A stretch of DNA of 62,740 nucleotides from Nanobdellota archaeon (GCA_030697505.1 JAUYPX010000039.1:1-62740); one strand, 5' to 3'. Shown: positions 1 through 53,174, counted from the first letter of the stretch. Numbers and translations: made by a program. The notes: a model not told the origin generated them from the sequence alone.

Positions 1-3000
1 TGAATATTTGTAGTACTGGTGCTGGTTGAACTACTTGGCGCTCCTCCTCCACTGCCCGGTTCTGCAATATTATCTATAGTGACAGATACTGTTTTGGTAT
101 TATTGATGTTACCGACGGTATCATTGGCAAAGACGGTGATGGTAAGGCTGCCTTCTGCTATGCTATTCGTATTTATAGAGACATTCCACATTCCAGATGT
201 ATTTGAGGCAGTAAGGTTGAACGGATTGGTGCCGTGGCTGAATTGGAAAAGAACTTTGCCTACATCAGTGAGAGAATCTCTCACCGTGGCGTTAAAATTG
301 CGGATGCCGCTCACGGTCGCTCCAGCAGCAGGCCCAGTTATGTTAACCGTCGGTGCTGTAAAATCAATCGTAAAATTGATGACCGCAGAATCATTGACAT
401 TATTTACCGTGTCATTGGCAACAATCCGTACTCCTTGTCTTCCTTCTGCTAAGGTCGAGAGGTTATAATTTACAATCCATTGGCCGGAGATATTTGTTCC
501 GGTAATGTTGAAATCCTGACTCGTGCCGTTGTCAAACCAGAAGTAGACCGTATCAAGGAGAAGTAAACTATCAAACACGCTGGCATTGAAAGTCTGGTTG
601 CTTGACCTAATGCTGAAATTGCTGTCATTCACGGGATTGTTCAGAAAGTTACGAGTGACATTTGGGGAAGTGAAGTCCACAGTAAAATTCATGAAATAGG
701 TATCATTGATATTATTGACGGTGTCGTTGGCGATTATTCGCACACCTTGCTTCTCTTCTGCTAACGTGGAGACATTGTAACTTATGGTCCATTGGCCGGA
801 ATTGTTGATGCCAGTTATATTTATGTCATTTCCAGTCCCATTATCCAACCAGAAGAACAATTTATTGATGTCGGTTAGAGTATCAAATGCACTGGCATTG
901 AAAGTTACATTTCCAGAACGGACACTATAATTACTGGCATTAAACAGAGTATTGGCATTGATAGAATTTATAGTTACATTTGGAGAAGTAAAGTCCACAG
1001 TGAAATTCATGAAATAGGTATCATTGACATTATTGACGGTGTCATTGGCGATAATTCGTACACCTTGTCTTCCTTCTGCTAACGTAGAGACATTGTAACT
1101 GACAATCCAATTTCCAGATTGGTTGACTGCGGTTACATTAATGTCATTTCCAGTTCCATTGTCCAACCAGAAGTAGACTCTGCTTACCCCGGTAAGAGCA
1201 TCAAAGATGCTGACATTAAAGGTTACATTTCCAGAACGGACACTAAAATTACTGGCATTAAACAGAGTATTGGCATTGAGAGAATTTATAGTTACATTAG
1301 GTCCTGTAAAGTCGACAGTAAAGTTGATGATCGCAGAATCATTGACATTATTTACCGTGTCATTGGCAACAATCCGTACTCCTTGTCTTCCTTCTGCCAA
1401 GGCTGACACATTGTAACTGATGGTCCATTGCCCGGAATTGTTAATCCCGGTTATATTTATGTCATTTCCAGTTCCGTTGTCCAGCCAGAAAAATAATCTA
1501 TTTATGTCAGTTAGAGTATCAAATGCACTGGCGTTAAAGGTTACATTTCCAGAACGGACACTATAATTACTGGCATTAAACAGAGTATTGGCATTGAGGG
1601 AATTGATAGTCACATTAGGAGAAGTGAAATCGACCGTAAAGTTGATGACCGCAGAATTATTGATATTGTTGACCGTGTCATTGGCGATGATTCGCACACC
1701 TTGCTTCCCTTCCGCCAATGTTGAAACATTGTAACTTACGGTCCATTGGCCGGAAGTGTTCAATCCGGTGACGTTAACGTCAGCGCTGGTTCCATTGTCG
1801 AACTGGAAGTAAACTGTACTAATTTGAGTGAAACTATCAAATACGCTGGCGTTGAAGGTTTGATTGCTTGATCTAATGCTAAAGTTGCTGTTATCAGCAG
1901 GATTGTTGAGGAAATTGATGGTGACATTTGGAGGCGTTTTATCTAGGATAGTAAGGTTATTAGAAATTACAACTGTTCCATCACCAGTTCCATTATTAGG
2001 GGTAGCATGCACGCTCCAGTTTTCACCTAGAATTGTTTCTTGGGCTGTAATGACGTTGGTTTGGTTTCTCCAGAGCGCATAGATCTGTTCATTGGAGAGA
2101 GAGCGATTGAAGATCATCACTTCGTCGATGGTTCCATTGAAAACATTAGAGGTCGCTCCTGATCCTCTTCCAATGTTGTAGGGAGTTTCATTATCCCAGG
2201 TTGTTGCATTCAATGACGTAAACGAATTAAGCACACATGGCTCTGCTGCTGCTTGTGCTCCGTCGATAAAGGTAGCCGCGTGTGTTAAGTTATATCTTCC
2301 AGTTACAAACACCCACGAATTCCATGACACAGCATTAGTAGTTGATTGTATAGAACACAATTTTGAGTTACTGCTTTTATTCTCATATATAATAAAATAG
2401 GTTCTATTAAGGTCTACCAGTGTACCGAAAAATAAAAAGTTGTTTAGGTTGTCAAGTCTAGATACTATAGTTGTCACTGCACTAGCGGATGTAGATTTTC
2501 CTTTTATGTATACCCATGAATTTATAGTGCACCCGTTAGTACATGCCAATCTAGTGCTGTTATTATCGCTCAAACCGATGTAATCATTGGCACCATCAAA
2601 CATATACGCTCCTTTTCCATCGTATCCCCCAGTGGAATTCCATAATACTCCCCCAGTTTCATTTCCATGATTTCTTAATCCGGAGTAATCCCATGTTTTA
2701 TTATCAGCGGTGGTACCGCTAGTCCCATTGATCCCTTCAAAGGGCATATTGAGTACGGCAATAGGACTGTTATTCATAAGCCAATTATAGATCACTTTCA
2801 GCGAATTGCCATTCGTCTGTGTAGTATTGTAAGCAGTAAGATTAGTATCTGTATCATTTTTACTAATATCTGTCGTATTAAGCACTAAAGCTATGCTTGG
2901 AGCATTCTGGATAGTTATTCCTTGTATTCCGATACTTGAGGTTTCTTTCTTGATAGTTTCAGGTTCAGCATATGTTTCAGTGATTATCGTAACTGCCTGT

Positions 3001-3161
3001 TCCGAGGAAGCATTACTTGATTCAACCAACGTAGTTTCTTCCGTAGGCAGCGTCGTTATGACAGCACCAGTGATAGAAGTAGTCTGCTGCAATAATAAGA
3101 ACGTACCCGCGATTACCAGCAGCAAAGCAAAGAAGATTGCTAACTCTACATTAACTTTCAT
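1..3161 (-). CDS. Secreted/surface protein, 3'-partial (open to the window edge): N-terminal hydrophobic anchor or signal, LamG (Laminin_G_3-like) domain, then at least 6 tandem ~106-aa Ig-like repeats rich in N-x-S/T sequons
   Basis: Absent from the ORF track because no stop lies inside the window. ATG at 3161-3159. My reverse translation gives MKVNVELAIFFALLLVIAGTFLLLQQ... at the start. It gives GATSNVFNGTIDEVMIFNRSLSNEQIYALWRNQTN at 2159-2045 (LamG C-terminal motif) and NSGQWTISYNVSALAEGRQGVRIVANDTVNNVNDSAIINF at 1439-1321. All three stretches share the frame of the ATG. No stop-bounded minus-strand ORF is listed for 1-3184. Confidence 0.8.
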   Translation of the reverse strand, partial: MKVNVELAIFFALLLVIAGTFLLLQQTTSITGAVITTLPTEETTLVESSNASSEQAVTIITETYAEPETIKKETSSIGIQGITIQNAPSIALVLNTTDISKNDTDTNLTAYNTTQTNGNSLKVIYNWLMNNSPIAVLNMPFEGINGTSGTTADNKTWDYSGLRNHGNETGGVLWNSTGGYDGKGAYMFDGANDYIGLSDNNSTRLACTNGCTINSWVYIKGKSTSASAVTTIVSRLDNLNNFLFFGTLVDLNRTYFIIYENKSSNSKLCSIQSTTNAVSWNSWVFVTGRYNLTHAATFIDGAQAAAEPCVLNSFTSLNATTWDNETPYNIGRGSGATSNVFNGTIDEVMIFNRSLSNEQIYALWRNQTNVITAQETILGENWSVHATPNNGTGDGTVVISNNLTILDKTPPNVTINFLNNPADNSNFSIRSSNQTFNASVFDSFTQISTVYFQFDNGTSADVNVTGLNTSGQWTVSYNVSTLAEGKQGVRIIANDTVNNINNSAVINFTVDFTSPNVTINSLNANTLFNASNYSVRSGNVTFNASAFDTLTDINRLFFWLDNGTGNDINITGINNSGQWTISYNVSALAEGRQGVRIVANDTVNNVNDSAIINFTVDFTGPNVTINSLNANTLFNASNFSVRSGNVTFNVSIFDALTGVSRVYFWLDNGTGNDINVTAVNQSGNWIVSYNVSTLAEGRQGVRIIANDTVNNVNDTYFMNFTVDFTSPNVTINSINANTLFNASNYSVRSGNVTFNASAFDTLTDINKLFFWLDNGTGNDINITGINNSGQWTISYNVSTLAEEKQGVRIIANDTVNNINDTYFMNFTVDFTSPNVTRNFLNNPVNDSNFSIRSSNQTFNASVFDSLLLLDTVYFWFDNGTSQDFNITGTNISGQWIVNYNLSTLAEGRQGVRIVANDTVNNVNDSAVINFTIDFTAPTVNITGPAAGATVSGIRNFNATVRDSLTDVGKVLFQFSHGTNPFNLTASNTSGMWNVSINTNSIAEGSLTITVFANDTVGNINNTKTVSVTIDNIAEPGSGGGAPSSSTSTSTTNI
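60..1930 (-). repeat. Tandem 318-bp (106-codon) coding repeats inside the surface-protein gene
   Basis: The landmark GT(C/A)(A/G)TTGGC recurs at 118, 411, 723, 1041, 1359 and 1677, mostly 318 bp apart. About 70 nt are identical between the 380-450 and 1330-1397 copies, and the spurious plus-strand ORFs there share the peptide DDRRIIDIIYRVIGNNPYSLSSFC. Boundaries are approximate. Confidence 0.8.
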
Positions 3162-4723: not shown

Positions 4724-5200
4724 TTAATGGAGTAATCTCCCCTGAAATTTATCTCTTATCTCATTAATCTTCTTCTCGTTTAATTTGATAATAACTGACT
4801 TACACTTAACTAAAAATTCTGGAGCTCTCTTGATCATCTGGCGGTATTGTTCGTCTGGAACGGTTCTATCAATGTAATACTGGGAATCAACTCTTGCTTT
4901 CAAAGATTCTTCCATAAAATTTAATTCAGGTTCTTGAAAATAATCTTTAAGAAATCTTTTTGTAAATTCAATAGTACAGGAGTGAATTTCACATTTTATG
5001 CCGATCTTCATCAAAATAGCATAAAGCGAAAAGTAAATGGTGTAATATGCAGTCGAAATTTTCCAATCCTTAATAATATTCACTCGCATTGACTCAAGAG
5101 CTTCTTCAGCTTTCTTAATATACGCATTTGCAAGATCTGAATTTGGCTCAATTAAACTTAATCCTCCTTTCTTTCCTGCACACCATTTTATTTTATCCAT
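4724..5200 (-). CDS. HEPN-domain protein (toxin partner of the upstream nucleotidyltransferase)
   Basis: Size, helical composition and an 8-bp overlap with the MNT gene fit a HEPN protein. I saw no clear R-x4-6-H motif, only R...Y (KARVDSQYY). Confidence 0.6.
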   Translation of the reverse strand: MDKIKWCAGKKGGLSLIEPNSDLANAYIKKAEEALESMRVNIIKDWKISTAYYTIYFSLYAILMKIGIKCEIHSCTIEFTKRFLKDYFQEPELNFMEESLKARVDSQYYIDRTVPDEQYRQMIKRAPEFLVKCKSVIIKLNEKKINEIRDKFQGRLLH

Positions 5201-5783
5201 CCTTGAAAACCACCCGTATAAATTGCTCTACATTAACAAAAACCACGTGGTTTTTTAAAACTTCTTTCAAAAGGATATCTTTTGTCACATTTTTCTCAAA
5301 AGTTTTTAGGGGATAACATTTTACACTTATTTCTATGCCTAAATTTTTTGAAACTCTTTTTATCCCATCTTGGTTATAAGTACCAGCAACAAAAATATCT
5401 AAATCAGAACCTTCTTTCTCTAATCCCTTGACATAACTCCCAAAAATAACGGCAATTCCTTCGATATGGGGGGTTATTTTTTCTATGATCTCCTTAATCA
5501 AAAGTCTTTTTTCTAAAAAGGCAATTGCTTTGTATTGTTCTACCAAAACGAGATACCTCTTAGTAAACTCACTGGGATTTATTTTATAGGTCTTGATTTT
5601 CCCCCTAGTTTTTGATTCTATAATCCCTTTATCTTCTAGATCTTCAAGAATAAGCTGTGCGGTTCTGGGGCTTATTTTTAACAATCTCTCAACTTCCCTA
5701 ATATAATATTCTCTACTAAAATCATTGGTGAATAGAGATAAGACTTGCAGGGTGTTCTCGGTCATTCTAACTTTTTCATACAT
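5193..5783 (-). CDS. Minimal nucleotidyltransferase (MNT) with N-terminal winged HTH
   Basis: GSYVKGLEKEGSDLDIFV (G-S...D-x-D NTase motif). N-terminal wHTH LLKISPRTAQLILEDLEDKGII. Confidence 0.7.
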   Translation of the reverse strand: MYEKVRMTENTLQVLSLFTNDFSREYYIREVERLLKISPRTAQLILEDLEDKGIIESKTRGKIKTYKINPSEFTKRYLVLVEQYKAIAFLEKRLLIKEIIEKITPHIEGIAVIFGSYVKGLEKEGSDLDIFVAGTYNQDGIKRVSKNLGIEISVKCYPLKTFEKNVTKDILLKEVLKNHVVFVNVEQFIRVVFKDG

Positions 5784-7993: not shown

Positions 7994-8362
7994 TTATTTT
8001 AAGAACATCACATTAGGTAAATCTTTAAATTCTTTGTCTCCGGTTAAAAAGAGGATATTCTTTAATCTAGCTACTTCATAACCAATACAATCTGCATAAG
8101 ATAATTTCTTTTTTTTGTGTACGAACCTAAACAGCATTGCTTTTGTTATGATTTCCCCATCTACGTCTATTACATATGATAATAATGTCTTCAACATCTC
8201 ATCAGCCATTACTTTTCCCATTTCGTTCAATACTACGTAGTACACCTCGGCAACATTAAAGATGGTGGTTATTCCAGTGTGCTCTTCAAAATAAGATTTA
8301 TAATGCACGTTACCATGAAAATATTCTATAAATGCAAAACTATCATAAAAATACTTGCTCAT
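7994..8362 (-). CDS. vapC: PIN-domain toxin (VapC-like)
   Basis: 122 aa. Acidic residue near the N terminus (FYDSFAFIEY), C-terminal LSYADCIGYEVA...FLTGDKEF. 4-bp overlap with the antitoxin gene. Confidence 0.65.
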   Translation of the reverse strand: MSKYFYDSFAFIEYFHGNVHYKSYFEEHTGITTIFNVAEVYYVVLNEMGKVMADEMLKTLLSYVIDVDGEIITKAMLFRFVHKKKKLSYADCIGYEVARLKNILFLTGDKEFKDLPNVMFLK

Positions 8363-8810: not shown

Positions 8811-8830
8811 TCGCCCTTATAGCTCAACGG
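8811..8830 (+). other. Exact 20-nt duplicate of the 5' end of tRNA-Thr (acceptor 5' strand, D stem 5' strand and part of the D loop)
   Basis: TCGCCCTTATAGCTCAACGG at 8811-8830 is identical to 9100-9119. Confidence 0.9.
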
Positions 8831-9049
8831 GAAATGTCACGCCACGTGAAAACTGAAAGAATATCAGTTTTCTGTGCACGAAAACCAACAACGATTTGTT
8901 TTCGGCACTGAAATGAGATATTTTTCTCATTTCATGTGCAGAAATGTGATAGTTTTCGCATTTCTTGCATTTCCAAGGCGAGTGCGCTTCACACTCGAAG
9001 GGACAACGATCCCTTCGGTGTACCGATGGGATGATATCCCATCCAGTAC
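8830..9049 (+). ncRNA. Multi-hairpin structured RNA module, copy A (alpha, beta, gamma hairpins plus 3 further hairpins)
   Basis: Closing stem GGAAATG 8830-36 / CATTTCC 8968-74 encloses four hairpins. They are GAAAACTGA-aagaata-TCAGTTTTC (8848-72), GAAAACCAA-CAACGA-TTTGTTTTC (8880-8903), TGAAATGAGA-TATTTT-TCTCATTTCA (8909-34) and GAAATGTG-ATAGTTTT-CGCATTTC (8941-64). Three more follow: CGAGTG/CACTCG (8979-97), GAAGGGA-CAACGA-TCCCTTC (8997-9016) and GTAC..GATGGGA-tgata-TCCCATC..GTAC (9020-49). Confidence 0.6.
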
Positions 9050-9101
9050 TTCGTTCAGCAGCACAACAAATAAAAATAAACACATTTTTGTAACAATTAT
9101 C

Positions 9102-9193
9102 GCCCTTATAGCTCAACGGCAGAGCGACTGCTTCGTATATGCGTAATGCGTCAAAAGAGCAGTAGGCTGAGGGTTCAAATCCCTCTAAGGGCT
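9102..9193 (+). tRNA. tRNA-Thr(CGU) with a 20-nt intron at the canonical 37/38 position
   Basis: Acceptor GCCCTTA/TAAGGGC 7/7. D stem GCTC/GAGC, D loop AACGGCA. Anticodon stem ACTGC (9127-31)/GCAGT (9159-63). Loop TTCGTA + intron 9138-9157 + A. Variable AGGCT. T arm GAGGG-TTCAAAT-CCCTC. An AT-rich TATA-like box lies about 27 nt upstream (9070-9080). I could not draw a clean BHB by hand. Confidence 0.85.
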
Positions 9194-10409: not shown

Positions 10410-10540
10410 GGAACACGAAAACAAACGACAATTTGTTTTCGGTTCTGAAATGTGGTAGTTTCAAGAAATGTGAAAAATATCCCATTTCTGAACTGAAAAT
10501 TTGATCTTTGTCAATTTTCATGTTCCGCATTTCATGAACA
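10410..10540 (+). ncRNA. Multi-hairpin structured RNA module, copy B (intergenic, no tRNA sequence nearby)
   Basis: GAAC..GAAAACAAA-CGACAA-TTTGTTTTC..GTTC (10411-45). TGAAATG (10446-52)/CATTTCA (10528-34) closes a domain with TAGTTT at 10456-61. That domain encloses GAAATG...CATTTC (10465-88) and TGAAAATT...AATTTTCA (10494-10520). Confidence 0.5.
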
Positions 10541-41595: not shown

Positions 41596-41731
41596 ATTTT
41601 GTTCACCACTGGACACCCACTGGACAAGTTCTCTAACTTCCAATGGTTCAAAATTTTAATGATTAAAGCTGTATTCTCAATATTTCACTATCCACTCCCG
41701 CACTGGACAACCCCGGCTAGAATATATAAAC
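41596..41731 (+). promoter_or_regulatory. Copy 2 of the repeated element: CACTGGACA boxes plus the BRE/TATA-like promoter of tRNA-Phe
   Basis: CCACTGGACAC, CCCACTGGACAAG and CGCACTGGACAACC boxes. GGCTAGAATATATAAAC has its TATA centre about 28 nt upstream of the tRNA 5' end at 41755. Confidence 0.65.
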
Positions 41732-41754: not shown

Positions 41755-42033
41755 GCCCAGGTCGCTTAACCTGGTATAGCGAGAGCGTGAAAATCAACAC
41801 AAGAAATCAAACAAAGATTTGATTTCTGTGCAAAAATGTGATAGTTTTCACATTTTTTGCAACGATTGATTTTCTGCTCTGAAATTAAGTAGTTTCTTAA
41901 TTTCATGAGTCTGAAACTCCGGGCAAGGAGTCCAGAAAACTCTTTTGTCCTGACCGACTTTGTGGGTTCGAATAGTTTCCGAAACTCGTGAGGAAACGAA
42001 CGAGAGCGGATCTCGACTTTCCCACCCTGGGCG
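41755..42033 (+). tRNA. tRNA-Phe(GAA) interrupted by a 124-nt structured intron in the anticodon stem, a 21-nt 37/38 intron, a 47-nt T-loop intron and 13 unexplained extra nt before the T stem
   Basis: Acceptor GCCCAGG (41755-61)/CCTGGGC (42026-32) 7/7. D arm GCTT-AACCTGGTA-TAGC. Anticodon stem AGAG (41782-85) + T (41910) pairs with ACTCT (41939-43), 5/5. Loop CTGAAA (41911-16) + A (41938). T arm GTGGG-TTCGAAT (41962-73)...CCCAC (42021-25). A near-BHB can be drawn for the 37/38 intron: 4-bp helix TCTG 41910-13/CAGA 41933-36 flanked by AAA bulges. Confidence 0.75.
41786..41909 (+). ncRNA. Multi-hairpin structured RNA module, copy C (intron 1 of tRNA-Phe)
   Basis: GAAAATCAA (41789-97)/TTGATTTTC (41866-74) closes a three-way junction. 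The junction holds GAAATCAAA-CAAAGA-TTTGATTTC (41803-26) and AAAAATGTG-ATAGTTTT-CACATTTTT (41832-57), with CAACGA in the junction strand. TGAAATTAAG-TAGTTT-CTTAATTTCA follows (41880-41905). Intron ends are ambiguous by 3 nt because of a GAG repeat. Confidence 0.65.
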
Positions 42034-49576: not shown

Positions 49577-50800
49577 TTACCCGATCAACCCAGCCGCGTC
49601 ATCATCTTCTTCAATCTGGATTTTTTCAATTGCTGCAAGGAAATCGTTATGGGTGACATATCCCCGGTTTTCTCGGATAGCGCAGTAACCTGCTTCCGTA
49701 CATACTGCCTGAAGTTCAGCTCCGCTGAAATTTTCTGTCTTTGCGGCGACTTCCTTCCTGTTAACCCTGCGCAAATTCATGTTTGCAGTATGGACTTTGA
49801 GGATCTCTAATCTTCCTTCCTCGTCTGGCAGGCCCACTTCAATCAAGCGGTCCAATCTTCCTGGCCTAATGATGGCGGTATCGAGAATATCAGCCCTGTT
49901 GGTAGCGCCAATGATCTTAACATTATCCAAATGTTTGAAACCATCTATTTCGGCTAAAAATTGCATGAAGGTCCTGCTTACTTCTCTCTCTCCTGAAGTT
50001 CCGGTCTCCATCCTTTTTGAGGCTAAGGCATCAATCTCATCGATAAATACGATGGAAGGCGCTTTCCGTCTGGCCAAGGTAAAAATATCTTTGACTAATT
50101 TTGCTCCCTCACCGATGAATTTCTGCACTAATTCTGAACCGACTACTTCGATGAAAGTTGCATTAGTGCTGCTGGCCACTGCTTTTGCCAACAAGGTCTT
50201 ACCCGTTCCCGGGGGGCCGTACAGAAGCACTCCTTTAGGCGGTTTGATCCCTACATTTTCAAATAATTCTGGCTTGGTGAGTGGAAGTTCTATCACTTCT
50301 TTTATTTCACGCACCACTTCTTTTAATCCGCCTATGGAATTCCAATCTTCTTTTGGTTTTTCTACAATGACGTATTTCTCAACTTCAAAATTTTCATTCG
50401 CCTCAAATTTCTCTACGATATTGAGGGATTTTTGGTCAACTAAAGCAGCATCTCCGCTTCTGATATCCTTGACATGCTGGGCAATGTAGCAGTAGAATTT
50501 GTTTCCATTAGGAAGCTTGATGGCAGCTTTGTCGCCGTGTACGCTCACCACCTCAGCGACCAGCAGGGAAGGCTTCTTCAGATTGTTTAATTCATTATTG
50601 GTATTATTGAATAATTCACGCAAGATGGAGCTTTCCTGCTCCACTTTGATCAAGGTGCTAGAAATAGTCTTGTTCTCTTCTTCCAGTTTTTCTACCGTCT
50701 CAGCAAGGATTCGGTTCTCTTCTTCTAAATCAACCGCATTGACGGTCTGAGAATAGACCATCTTGTCATTTTGAGTTTCATTCGCGTTCGCTTTTGCCAT
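49577..50800 (-). CDS. pan: Proteasome-activating nucleotidase (AAA+)
   Basis: N-terminal coiled coil, GVLLYGPPGTGKTLLAKAVA, IVFIDEIDAL, GATNRADILD. Confidence 0.9.
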   Translation of the reverse strand: MAKANANETQNDKMVYSQTVNAVDLEEENRILAETVEKLEEENKTISSTLIKVEQESSILRELFNNTNNELNNLKKPSLLVAEVVSVHGDKAAIKLPNGNKFYCYIAQHVKDIRSGDAALVDQKSLNIVEKFEANENFEVEKYVIVEKPKEDWNSIGGLKEVVREIKEVIELPLTKPELFENVGIKPPKGVLLYGPPGTGKTLLAKAVASSTNATFIEVVGSELVQKFIGEGAKLVKDIFTLARRKAPSIVFIDEIDALASKRMETGTSGEREVSRTFMQFLAEIDGFKHLDNVKIIGATNRADILDTAIIRPGRLDRLIEVGLPDEEGRLEILKVHTANMNLRRVNRKEVAAKTENFSGAELQAVCTEAGYCAIRENRGYVTHNDFLAAIEKIQIEEDDDAAGLIG

Positions 50801-50892
50801 TATTTGTTCTTAGAAGGCAATTTTATATTTAAATTTACTGCCTGCTTTATTCGTCTTTATGCAAAAAATGTCAGGTCTTCAACTTCTAAAAT

Positions 50893-50959
50893 CTGCTTTT
50901 TCCACCAGTATATTTCACTGGTGGTGAATCAGTGATTTCACCTAGGCTGGAAAAAGCAG
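50893..50959 (-). ncRNA. Y-shaped hairpin element adjoining module D
   Basis: CTGCTTTTTCCA (50893-904)/TGGAAAAAGCAG (50948-59), 12 bp, encloses CCACCAGT/ACTGGTGG and GGTGAA/TTCACC. Strand inferred from module D. Confidence 0.4.
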
Positions 50960-50964
50960 GGTCG

Positions 50965-51203
50965 GAAAACTGACCAGAGCGAAGCATGAAATAAAGAAAC
51001 TACTTTATTTCAGCTCAGAAAAGAAATCGTTGTTTCTTTTCTTGAGCGAGTATGCATGAAATTTGAAAACTATCAAATTTCAGCACTGAAAACTAATCGT
51101 TGTTAGTTTTCATGTGCCGCTGGTCCACTCGGAAACAAAGTTTCCGGTGTGCCAGAGAAATCGCTGTTTCTCTGTGCATATTGGCCAGCGGTGGTCAGTT
51201 TTC
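50965..51203 (-). ncRNA. Multi-hairpin structured RNA module, copy D (239 nt, minus orientation), closed by a 12-bp stem that overlaps the stop codon of the transglutaminase-like gene
   Basis: Closing pair 50965-76/51192-203 (GAAAACTGACCA/TGGTCAGTTTTC on the minus strand). On the minus strand the hairpins are TGAAATAAAG-TAGTTT-CTTTATTTCA (50987-51012), GAAAAGAAA-CAACGA-TTTCTTTTC (51018-41), TGAAATTTG-ATAGTTTT-CAAATTTCA (51057-82) and TGAAAACTAA-CAACGA-TTAGTTTTCA (51087-112). CCGCTGG/CCAGCGG (51117-23/51185-91) encloses CAGAGAAA-CAGCGA-TTTCTCTG and GGAAAC-ttt-GTTTCC. Confidence 0.6.
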
Positions 51204-53174
51204 TTTGACGAATAAGTTAATCAGCCAGTTTGAAAGCATTTTTACCTTGTCAGCGAAAGAATTCCCTTCTGCTTTCACTATTATTTTTTGCTCGGTAGAA
51301 TAGGCCTTTCCCTGCCGATCCTCCCAGTTGGCAGTAATAATGAACTCAGTATTCCTACTCAAGCTTTGCCCATCGACAAGATAACTTATCTTTTCTTCCG
51401 GTCCTAAGCCGGGAATATCCCAAACACTCTTCGCTCCTGCGCCAGAAATAGCCAAGGCAAGATTTCGTGGCTCTGCAAAGGAATCTTTTTGGAGCGATAT
51501 TTCGATGGTTGGAGAATCGCCAAACTGGATCACTGGGGGATATTTCGCAGAAATAGTCAGCTGTGGAGTATCCAATACCGCATATTCCAGGGGCATTTTT
51601 TTCTCCACTTCCTTATTTTCCGCACGTACGATCACTTTCTGCCAGCCGGCATTTTCGCCCTTTACCGTGACTTCTATGTTTTTCTTTTGATTGATGGGCA
51701 GATCCGCGGTCTCGCAGGCATCTCCGACGCAGAAAGTAAGACTTTTAAAGTTTGTATTTCCGGTGTTCTTGATGGAACAGGTGACCGGCGCTTCTTCTCC
51801 CAGCATGATCTCTTTTTTATACTGGCAATCGAAAGTGATCTTTTGCGAGTAACTTTTCTCTTCATCTTGGATGCTCAGCTCCTCGATCTCTGCTTTAGAA
51901 TAGGTGTTTTTTCCCACTTGGGCGGTAAAAGTGTCATCAACAGAAGCATTTTTCTCAGAATAGATTCTGACCGGGAAAGTATAGACATAATTCTCCTGAA
52001 GATTTTCCGGTATTTTGACCATCCAAAAAGTTTCCCGCACTTCCCGAGGAGGGAGAAGGATATTTCTTCTGTTCCTGCCGATCACTTCTACTTCCTTGGG
52101 GGCAGCCAAATTAAGGGCGGTAGCAGCATAATAATGAGCATTATTCCTGACCACGCCTTTCACTAAATTGTAACTTCCAAAACCGACTTCATGGGCCAGG
52201 ATTTCCTGTTCCAGCTGGATCTGCTCAGGAACAGCAGCACCTTCTTTCTCAACCGTAACCTCAAGGCCTAATTTTCCTTTCTCCAATTTCACTCCATCGG
52301 AAACCCATTCATATTTTACTGCCGGTTCGGTGGGATCGAAACTGTCTCTCAAGCGCAGGTGGGTCACATCAACATAACCGTATTGATTGAAAGTGACATC
52401 AAAGCTTACCCAGCCTATCTCGGGGAAGTACACTTCCGCCCACCCATGCCCGGCCCAATTTGAACCGACCGCATTGACGACTTCTTGGCTGTTAGTATAC
52501 GAAATTCCGGAAACGAACCGTGCAGGGATCCCTAAGGATCTAGCCATAGCTACAAATAAGGAAGTCATCTCATCGCAGACACCTTGCTTATTCTGGAGAA
52601 CCCAGCTTCCTTTCTGAGAAGCGGCGCTGGTGACCGTGTTGAGATCATACTCAATATGTTCTTCCACCCAGCTGGCCAGATTGAATGCTACTTTGAACAG
52701 ATCGTCTTCTCCTTCTGCCAATTCAGCCGCTTTAGCGATCACTGCCGGATGATCGGAATCGATAGTTTCAGTCGGCTCTAGATATTGTTCTAATCCCTGC
52801 ACATCCTGCGGCCGCAAAGGAAAAGAGATTTTTTCTTTTACTGCCAAGCGCTGGTTCTGCGTCGCTATCAATGCAGCGTATCCGAACTTTTTCTTCTCAA
52901 TCTGCCCATCATTCCAGAAAAAAGAGACCATCTCATCTTTTACTATTCCTTCGCTGTCCCATAGGATAATCTTTTGTCGTTGACTTTCTTGGGGATAGAG
53001 AAACAGGTCGGCAGTAACTTCTTTTATATCGGCCCCGCTTTTGGTCGGCACTAACTCCAAAGAACCCTCTACGTTCAATCGTAATTCCAACGACTCCATG
53101 GAATAGAGATCATTTTCCGCAAAGGATGAAGAGACAAATAACATTAACAACAATAAAACAAGCCGCCATTTCAT
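51195..53174 (-). CDS. Secreted transglutaminase-like cysteine protease-fold protein with C-terminal CARDB-like domains
   Basis: Signal MKWRLVLLLLMLFVSSSFA. QGVCDEMTSLFVAMARSLGIPARFVSG, GHGWAEVY and FDVT form the Cys-His-Asp core. Confidence 0.8.
   Translation of the reverse strand: MKWRLVLLLLMLFVSSSFAENDLYSMESLELRLNVEGSLELVPTKSGADIKEVTADLFLYPQESQRQKIILWDSEGIVKDEMVSFFWNDGQIEKKKFGYAALIATQNQRLAVKEKISFPLRPQDVQGLEQYLEPTETIDSDHPAVIAKAAELAEGEDDLFKVAFNLASWVEEHIEYDLNTVTSAASQKGSWVLQNKQGVCDEMTSLFVAMARSLGIPARFVSGISYTNSQEVVNAVGSNWAGHGWAEVYFPEIGWVSFDVTFNQYGYVDVTHLRLRDSFDPTEPAVKYEWVSDGVKLEKGKLGLEVTVEKEGAAVPEQIQLEQEILAHEVGFGSYNLVKGVVRNNAHYYAATALNLAAPKEVEVIGRNRRNILLPPREVRETFWMVKIPENLQENYVYTFPVRIYSEKNASVDDTFTAQVGKNTYSKAEIEELSIQDEEKSYSQKITFDCQYKKEIMLGEEAPVTCSIKNTGNTNFKSLTFCVGDACETADLPINQKKNIEVTVKGENAGWQKVIVRAENKEVEKKMPLEYAVLDTPQLTISAKYPPVIQFGDSPTIEISLQKDSFAEPRNLALAISGAGAKSVWDIPGLGPEEKISYLVDGQSLSRNTEFIITANWEDRQGKAYSTEQKIIVKAEGNSFADKVKMLSNWLINLFVKEN

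Follow-up and report, generated by a model that had tools for sequence, protein, structure and literature searches.

The region of about 310 nt between a transglutaminase-like (TGase) gene and pan, here called module D, is best interpreted as selfish repeat DNA, a mosaic of small mobile palindromic elements, and not as a structured-RNA gene, a reading to which we assign a probability of roughly 0.85. It lies in a 62,740-nt stretch of DNA from a Nanobdellota archaeon, which was analysed as a whole and is referred to as the window. Hairpin dimers of the kind found in module D are dispersed over many loci, are in some cases nested in other repeats and have been inserted as units with a 2-bp duplication. 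This interpretation removes a false lead, that of a large ncRNA upstream of pan, and documents a repeat family similar to REPs and MITEs in DPANN archaea, whose genomes are tiny and in which such repeats have been little studied. Elements of the family rewrite the C-terminus of a gene and nest in each other.

Module D and the neighbouring genes

The features of the locus, all of them on the minus strand, are listed below in the order in which they are read.

51195..53174 (-): transglutaminase-like CDS, 659 aa (Pfam Transglut_core, E=8e-28)
50886..51209 (-): composite element, made up of a scaffold repeat and two inserted dimers
51192..51203 (-): 5' arm of the outer stem, GAAAACTGACCA, containing the TGA stop
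51117..51191 (-): inner stem domain, CCGCTGG (51191-51185) / CCAGCGG (51123-51117)
51174-51153 (-): family-like hairpin inside the inner stem, 8-bp stem, loop CAGCGA
51147-51130 (-): family-like hairpin inside the inner stem, 7-bp stem, loop TTT
50977..51116 (-): 16-nt unpaired bulge of the scaffold, CATACTCGCTTCGCTC, full span including the dimers
51055..51114 (-): hairpin dimer 1, 60 nt
50985..51044 (-): hairpin dimer 2, 60 nt
51112-51087 and 51042-51017 (-): hairpins with the loop CAACGA
51082-51057 and 51012-50987 (-): hairpins with the loop TAGTTT
50965..50976 (-): 3' arm of the outer stem, TGGTCAGTTTTC, followed by cGACC
50893..50959 (-): Y-shaped hairpin domain, closing stem CTGCTTTTTCC / GGAAAAAGCAG, 11 bp
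50821..50836 (-): likely pan promoter aaatttaaatataaaa, conserved upstream of pan
49577..50800 (-): pan, proteasome-activating nucleotidase (NCBIfam PRK03992, E=7e-147)

The initial annotation had described a continuous nested structure in the region, and this structure is real. The arms of the outer stem (51203-51192 and 50976-50965) form 12 bp across an intervening 215 nt at the coordinates given before, and the hairpin scan and the fold confirm the enclosed CCGCTGG/CCAGCGG sub-domain and four perfect hairpins with 10-bp stems and 6-nt loops. The outer stem itself is close to a hairpin of the family, cGTC-AA-AGAAAACTGA...TCAGTTTTCc-GACC, in which the flank GT is complementary to the centre AC, with one extra A and one A.C pair. 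A separate Y-shaped element is also present, although its closing stem is of 11 bp and not of 12 bp as first described; its interior comprises the hairpins GGTGAA/TTCACC and ACCAGT/ACTGGT. On the minus strand, a 336-nt stretch spanning module D is predicted to fold with -137.3 kcal/mol, compared with -72 +/- 5 for shuffled sequences (z = -12.8). An equally strong fold is predicted for the plus strand (z = -13.3), which therefore points to Watson-Crick pairing, as expected of DNA palindromes, and singles out no RNA strand.

Within the 5' arm of the outer stem lies the TGA stop (51197-51195) of the TGase gene, whose final four codons read, with the stop, GTC AAA GAA AAC TGA (51209-51195). Sequence comparison reveals that the protein of the window ends in ...LINLF-VKEN*, compared with ...LINLF(S/L)* in the relatives. 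The homology of the gene to its relatives ends exactly at the start of the homology to other copies of the scaffold (cGTCAAAG..., cGTCAAAGAAAAC), and the element is therefore considered to supply the last four codons and the stop, which is also why the outer stem overlaps the stop codon. The identical TGase gene is found in a sole public contig, L081 (Logan SRR13727529, 3092 bp), that breaks off inside dimer 1, an instance of the way in which repeats of this family break short-read assemblies. No protein identical to PAN is on record.

The motif aaatttaaatataaaa is intact and lies about 50 nt downstream of the composite element. It occurs directly upstream of pan in all the relatives examined, with 1-2 substitutions in L090 and L082, and is likely to be the pan promoter, apparently of the TATA/BRE type.

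The hairpin dimer family

The hairpin scan shows that the strong hairpins of the window share one geometry, a perfect 10-bp stem with a 6-nt loop, and that their loops are of few types, CAACGA-like and TAGTTT/TATTTT-like. Family-type hairpins conforming to the flanking-context rule number 13 in the window, compared with 0-2 in each of 20 shuffled windows. The clusters, and a dimer that is referred to repeatedly below, are as follows.

~8848-9050: intergenic hairpin cluster
10416-10530: intergenic hairpin cluster
41788-41905: intergenic hairpin cluster
50886-51209: intergenic hairpin cluster (module D)
41800..41859 (+): 60-nt dimer in the CAACGA loop of the hairpin TGAAAATCAA...TTGATTTTCT, with an empty site in L148

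Alignment of the copies defines the dimer as NN-CA-[W GAAA W nnnn / 6-nt loop / nnnn W TTTC W]-G N'N' C-[second hairpin]-TG-NN, the second hairpin having its loop in the opposite orientation. Each hairpin comprises a 10-bp stem (WGAAAW and four variable pairs) and a 6-nt loop, and the A that follows C and the T that precedes G each stay unpaired. The ends CAWGAAAW and WTTTCWTG constitute terminal inverted repeats of about 8 nt. The flanks have the consensus NNCA-[stem]...[stem]-GNNC, which includes no invariant tetranucleotide; cGTC is found only at the 5' ends of scaffolds (D and L128) and not on dimers. The outer 6 bp of the stems and the loops are conserved, and the inner 4 bp are variable yet co-vary in such a way that perfect pairing is kept.

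Dimer 1 of module D reads CA-(TGAAAACTAA caacga TTAGTTTTCA)-GTGC-(TGAAATTTGA tagttt TCAAATTTCA)-TG and is flanked by the duplication CA (51116-51115 and 51054-51053), the reverse complement of its linker centre TG. Dimer 2 reads CA-(AGAAAAGAAA caacga TTTCTTTTCT)-GAGC-(TGAAATAAAG tagttt CTTTATTTCA)-TG; for its flanking duplication, CT (51046-51045 and 50984-50983), the relation to the linker centre, AG, is likewise one of reverse complementarity. The same complementarity of both flanking dinucleotides to the linker centre is seen in 50 of the 54 non-redundant dimers, whereas 10,000 permutations gave 8.5 such dimers on average and 20 at most. The duplicated dinucleotide varies among the copies (TA 12, CA/TG 19, CT/AG 13, CG 4). 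Even dimers that differ at only 2-3 of their 52 hairpin nucleotides have different centres, for example GCTC and GAGC, and duplications that differ to match.

Empty sites were reconstructed from the dimer loci and then searched for, and four exact filled/empty pairs have been identified: position 41797 of the window and L148 (duplication CA), L128 and L113 (CA), L133 and L113 (CG), and L183 and L122 (AG). In these four pairs, with three different duplications, the 60-nt dimer is the part that is present or absent. The mobile unit is therefore a 60-nt 5'-CA...TG-3' segment with a 2-bp target duplication. The 2-bp target exists already in the empty site and matches the dimer's own centre.

In the case of the dimer at 41800-41859, the arms of the host hairpin (41788-41797 and 41866-41875) surround the CA duplication (41798-9 and 41860-1), and the orthologous L148 has the host hairpin intact, with 0 mismatches over the reconstructed empty site. 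The flanks of dimers form a stem of at least 6 bp in 9% of cases against 1.7%, a modest enrichment for hairpin loops; insertion favours unpaired or loop positions to some extent, the preference being modest. Upstream of cluster C, the motif cactggac is present three times on the plus strand of the window (41606-41630 and 41691-41705), and in L102, L105, L116 and L127 a dimer occupies the site whose empty counterpart is the segment 41691-41705 (+).

The scaffold repeat and the composite element

Removal of the two dimers from module D by the duplication rule leaves about 200 nt that are homologous, both in sequence and in architecture, to copies at unrelated loci. Such scaffold copies have been identified in unrelated contexts in L128, L113 (nhmmer E=1e-11), L124/L141, L118, L104 and L175, those of L124/L141 being upstream of an ftsZ gene. 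A minimal copy of 48 nt occurs in the TGase-pan spacer of L197, at a site that is empty in its close relative L199.

The dimer-free forms of D and of the copies in L128/L113 have a common fold architecture: an outer stem is followed inwards by the conserved bulge CATRCTCGCTTCGCTC, of 16 unpaired nt, and by the inner stem CCACCRCTGG / CCAGYGG, and next to this hairpin there is a second, Y-shaped one terminating in GGTGGAAAAA.CA.ATTTTAG. The outer stem of L128/L113 (AAAAAACGCCC / GGGGCGGTTTTT) is unlike that of D in sequence, yet complementarity is kept; the counterpart of the inner stem is CCACTGGTG / CACCAGTGG. Their bulge, CATGCTCGCTTCGCTC, is identical to that of D at 15 of 16 positions and is unpaired in both dimer-free scaffold folds. 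The Y motif CCACCAGTG..CACTGGTGGAAAAA.CA.ATTTTAG is also found in L113, L118, L128, L104 and L197. The composite element in the window extends as 5'-GTCAAAGAAAAC ... GGTGGAAAAAGCAG ATTTTAG-3', the limits of which are imprecise by some 7 nt, since ATTTTAG could be target sequence; the boundaries of the scaffold element in general are fuzzy. In L128 about 180 nt of long nested inverted repeats (2835-3010; ctaacggacagaa.../...ttctgtccgttat and ggctctgtagaaaatct.../...agattttctacagagcc) are inserted in the Y hairpin of the scaffold, and they may represent another class of nested element.

Both dimers of module D are located in the bulge of the scaffold, the pieces of which are CA (51116-51115), TACTCG (51052-47), CT (51046-45) and TCGCTC (50982-77). 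At the site of dimer 1, L128 has a dimer at the same CA and L113 has none, its site being an exact empty site with 0 mismatches over 42 nt; at this scaffold position L124 retains the second hairpin alone. The site of dimer 2, ...CTCG-CT-TCGCTC, is uninterrupted in both L113 and L128. The initial annotation had suggested that hairpin units filled the loop of an older hairpin. Nesting of this kind is borne out at 41800-41859 and in the bulge of D, but it accounts for a part of the enclosed 215 nt: two dimers are inserted, while about 95 nt belong to the conserved scaffold repeat.

The outer stem had also been equated with a hairpin of copy A, GAAAACTGA-7 nt-TCAGTTTTC, at 8848-8872. The 9-mer is shared and the loop of copy A is of 7 nt, but two-thirds of this 9-mer is family consensus (GAAAAC), and it is therefore weak evidence of direct descent from copy A. 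Copy A lies between a duplicated 20-nt 5' fragment of tRNA-Arg and the intact tRNA-Arg gene (9102-9193), the sole match of Rfam in the whole window. The view that the family is not confined to tRNA introns holds in so far as no tRNA was found in the region of module D, though copy A itself is not in a tRNA intron. The 20-nt direct repeat tcgcccttatagctcaacgg (8811-8830 and 9100-9119, +), which is the 5' part of tRNA-Arg(TCG), brackets a 269-nt insert holding cluster A, and the insert looks as if it had entered the tRNA gene, carrying or regenerating its 5' part. In the vicinity of cluster A are also a HEPN and nucleotidyltransferase pair (4724-5783, -) and a PIN-domain gene (7994-8362, -), which look like toxin-antitoxin modules.

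Orthologous TGase-pan spacers

The PAN protein is 85-92% identical to MAG proteins labelled Nanoarchaeota or Woesearchaeota, which identifies the host of the window as a DPANN archaeon. The syntenic ThiI / TGase / pan region was compared in the relatives L191, L194, L090, L197, L199 and L082. Their TGase-pan spacers are of 56-460 nt and module D is present in none of them. The spacer of L191 (56 nt) has little beyond the promoter motif, that of L194 (110 nt) has no element of the family, and those of L090, L197 and L199 (320-460 nt) encode a small lysine-rich ORF on the reverse strand. L082 has one monomer and one dimer of the hairpin family in its spacer, which are other copies at other positions than those of D. 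Module D is not conserved at this locus and is therefore an insertion; the idea of an RNA module conserved upstream of pan is contradicted by the spacers of L191 and L194 in particular. The lysine-rich ORF (MAKKAKKRASSKK...KKKRQ; ~9725-9815 in L090, ~2640-2740 in L197 and L199) is missing from the window, L082, L191 and L194.

Distribution of the family

A scan of metagenomes with the gamma-hairpin pattern has revealed 94 contig stretches, mostly from groundwater and with 31-45% G+C, containing 96 matches; 52 of these are perfect palindromes and most of the others have one mismatch. The family loci (795 kb) contain 166 perfect 10+6+10 hairpins with few loop types. Among the unique dimers 58 of 61 are intergenic. 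Where both neighbouring genes run the same way, 8 dimers have the polarity of the genes, as judged by loop type, and 8 have the opposite one, which amounts to no bias; divergent spacers contain 11 dimers and convergent spacers 3.

At least one contig of the family is archaeal by its rpoB. The contig L174 (Ga0082335_1000002, 1.2 Mb) has a bona fide dimer and also a gene for a RelA/SpoT protein. RelA/SpoT proteins are typically bacterial. From the gene content of this contig, the dimer family may not be restricted to archaea, or the archaeon concerned may have acquired the RelA/SpoT gene. Two full-dimer patterns gave no match in the viral contigs of IMG/VR; six matches of the gamma-hairpin pattern in viral contigs have non-complementary inner bases and were set aside as chance.

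Structured RNA and other explanations

The principal rival to the repeat-DNA reading is that module D is a functional structured RNA, either a stand-alone ncRNA or a 3'-UTR domain of the TGase mRNA that protects, terminates or binds protein. The extreme stability of the fold, the beginning of the module at a stop codon, the T-runs after stems and the co-orientation of all the four clusters of the window with the downstream gene are in accordance with it, as is the report that bacterial REPs act as RNA elements (PMC3733652). We nevertheless consider it unlikely. The opposite strand folds equally well, the 61 dimers have no polarity bias relative to genes, the module is missing from the orthologous loci of close relatives, and the hairpin units are demonstrably insertions according to the filled/empty pairs. 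The 52 mismatches in the 147 family hairpins (98 of which have perfect stems) include only 7 G.T, along with 11 C.T, 7 T.C, 7 C.A and 6 A.C, with no enrichment of G.T. The absence of the module in relatives, of a polarity bias and of a G-U preference likewise speaks against the discrete RNA of 240-310 nt that had been predicted. No Rfam family, and hence neither of the two that the initial annotation had wished to see ruled out, SRP RNA and RNase P RNA, reaches its gathering score in the region, and at E<=10 the region has only sub-threshold matches to miRNA, snoRNA and lncRNA models. It is possible, within the repeat-DNA reading, that module D has been exapted as a stabiliser of the mRNA 3' end, a terminator or an insulator.

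Other known classes were also considered. The bulge-helix-bulge of archaeal tRNA introns has the geometry of a 3-nt bulge, a 4-bp helix and a 3-nt bulge; here there is no tRNA, and 1-nt bulges on one strand flank a 4-nt linker. CRISPR arrays, integron attC sites and C/D and H/ACA sRNAs were rejected, there being no spacers, cassettes, boxes or pockets.

In another rival reading, the inverted TGAAAT...ATTTCA sequences would be recognised as double-stranded DNA and would serve a dimeric DNA-binding protein as operators or architectural sites, which might, for instance, insulate the pan promoter. Conservation of the outer 6 bp and the loops, together with the occurrence of clusters in promoter-containing spacers (the excess in divergent over convergent spacers noted above), would suit such a binding-site array; the co-variation of the inner 4 bp for perfect pairing, which is needless in a duplex operator, the gain and loss of copies between close relatives with target duplications and the inconsistent distance to promoters make it very improbable. 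Still harder to credit is an origin of the palindromes in place, by replication errors such as template switching or fold-back synthesis and without transposition. Fold-back copying would give perfect stems, as most of them are, but it is largely refuted by the filled/empty pairs, and it would account neither for the recurrence of identical 60-nt units, bordered by 2-bp duplications and matched by exact empty sites, at loci that are otherwise unrelated, nor for the conservation of the loops, the bulged A/T and the CA..TG ends. Stem position 8 is the site of 28 of the 52 mismatches, for example TGAAATGTGG / CCGCATTTCA, and the mismatch has been inherited across many copies, its carriers including L105, L116, L132, L144, L167 and L183; this inheritance argues against fold-back synthesis and against selection for RNA pairing. 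The mismatch may be a recognition feature or a mere sub-lineage marker.

Proposed history and mechanism

Under the preferred reading of module D as repeat DNA, a composite non-autonomous element would have inserted at the extreme 3' end of the TGase gene, replacing the last codon and the stop with GTC AAA GAA AAC TGA. Its scaffold consists of a long hairpin (outer stem, 16-nt bulge, inner stem) followed by the second, Y-shaped hairpin, and two 60-nt mini-elements would then have colonised it at the CA and the CT of the unpaired bulge. The new C-terminal tetrapeptide of the TGase and the T-rich hairpins downstream of the gene are probably incidental effects.

The mini-element moves as a unit, and the 2 bp of target that it duplicates are reverse-complementary to its linker NN. 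On excision, it would form a 62-nt single-stranded circle closing up as a rod, with the order loop, 10 bp, 4 bp, 10 bp and loop, and with the cutting performed by a hairpin-recognising enzyme encoded elsewhere; in the predicted circular folds of both D dimers the linker and the junction pair as the central helix. By analogy with IS200/IS605, we tentatively suggest that base pairing of the linker with single-stranded DNA may decide where the mini-element inserts. Two origins of the agreement between centre and duplication are compatible with the data, a linker that selects its target in this manner and a centre that is copied from the target during insertion. A recombinase acting through a 2-bp crossover core would be another possibility. 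A bolder proposal, which we regard as rather doubtful, is that the 60-nt unit represents a new kind of ultra-small DNA transposon, in which the linker NN, by pairing with the target dinucleotide, dictates where insertion takes place and the intermediate is the 62-nt rod-circle. If it were so, a change of one or two bases in the linker NN would retarget the element, and single-base bulges would border the 4-bp helix in which the rod exposes the cleavage site. The match of duplication and centre is in any case an unusual signature, which could reveal transposition with the choice of target encoded in the DNA of the element.

The initial annotation had raised the possibility of an HUH/TnpA gene capable of mobilising hairpins. 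A probe of the IS608 TnpA transposase (validated as Y1_Tnp, E = 1e-42) gave no tblastn match to a Y1 transposase in 855 kb of the window and family loci, a weak negative from one probe and partial genomes. Among 702 ORFs of the sampled loci, a partial sampling, there is neither a multi-copy transposase-like ORF, the multi-copy ORFs being housekeeping genes only, nor an autonomous insertion sequence with dimer-like ends.

Comparison with known mobile elements

Neither the hairpin family nor a centre-matched 2-bp duplication was found described in the literature searched, the search not being exhaustive. Elements of several known classes share particular features with the family. Rickettsia palindromic elements are known to land inside coding sequences and to alter the end of the protein, as the repeat of module D does with TGase. 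IS1397 and ISKpn1 insert into the loops of REPs, IS1397 being a full insertion sequence with a transposase, and are comparable to the dimers as mobile DNA that targets the loops of palindromic repeats. Both are likenesses of behaviour with no sequence relationship.

The IS200/IS605 elements transpose as single strands by 'peel and paste', produce no true duplication and have a fixed tetra- or pentanucleotide target; guide tetranucleotides 5' of each hairpin pair with the cleavage or target site. These properties of the IS200/IS605 family are reportedly those described by Barabas in 2008 and Guynet in 2009. Like such elements, the dimer carries a hairpin at either end and prefers unpaired DNA (loops, bulges); the foot of its hairpins includes 4 nt complementary to the flanking cleavage/target site, and the empty site would be regenerated if the dimer were precisely excised. 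The complementarity of linker centre and flank in 50/54 dimers is compatible with guide pairing. The dimer differs in being flanked on both sides by the same, variable dinucleotide, that is by a duplication with no fixed target. Moreover, a single shared central guide would serve both ends of a pseudo-symmetric element, and no Y1 transposase was detected in the 855 kb (one probe, partial genomes).

Similarity to MITEs is apparent from the small, non-coding nature of the dimer, its terminal inverted repeats of about 8 nt and its target-site duplication. The dimers are also intergenic with nested insertions, and a census has placed a Woesearchaea genome among the most MITE-dense of archaea, without describing this hairpin family (PMC11602168). 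At 60 nt, however, the dimer is at or under the lower size limit of MITEs, its duplication varies (TA, CA/TG, CT/AG, CG) and matches its own centre (50/54), and the 702 ORFs of the sampled loci revealed no parent insertion sequence that shares its ends.

REP, BIME and REPIN elements are short tagged palindromes that occur mainly as inverted dimers, often heterodimers; some REPs lie inside longer palindromes, and for the CGTC class no transposase is known (PMC3733652; PMC3116915). The family resembles them as short intergenic stem-loops in many copies, with an inverted pair of hairpins as the predominant and replicating unit, common heterodimers, mosaic clusters, some dimers within longer palindromes, and presence or absence between strains. 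As with the CGTC REPs, no transposase has been identified for it here. It differs from them in several respects. The host is a DPANN archaeon, whereas the REP survey reports bacterial phyla only (PMC3733652). The dimers have no GTAG/CGTC tag, the conserved feature being instead CA...G with a 1-nt A/T bulge; their spacer is fixed at 4 nt (GNNC), in contrast to 20-100 bp in the bacterial elements, and the two hairpins do not pair together. The 2-bp target duplication complements the centre of the spacer, which has not been seen described for REPs, and no RAYT was found in the window and the family loci (855 kb, IS608 TnpA probe, partial genomes). Taken with these differences, it is the bacterial REP/BIME/REPIN elements and the MITEs that the hairpin family most resembles.
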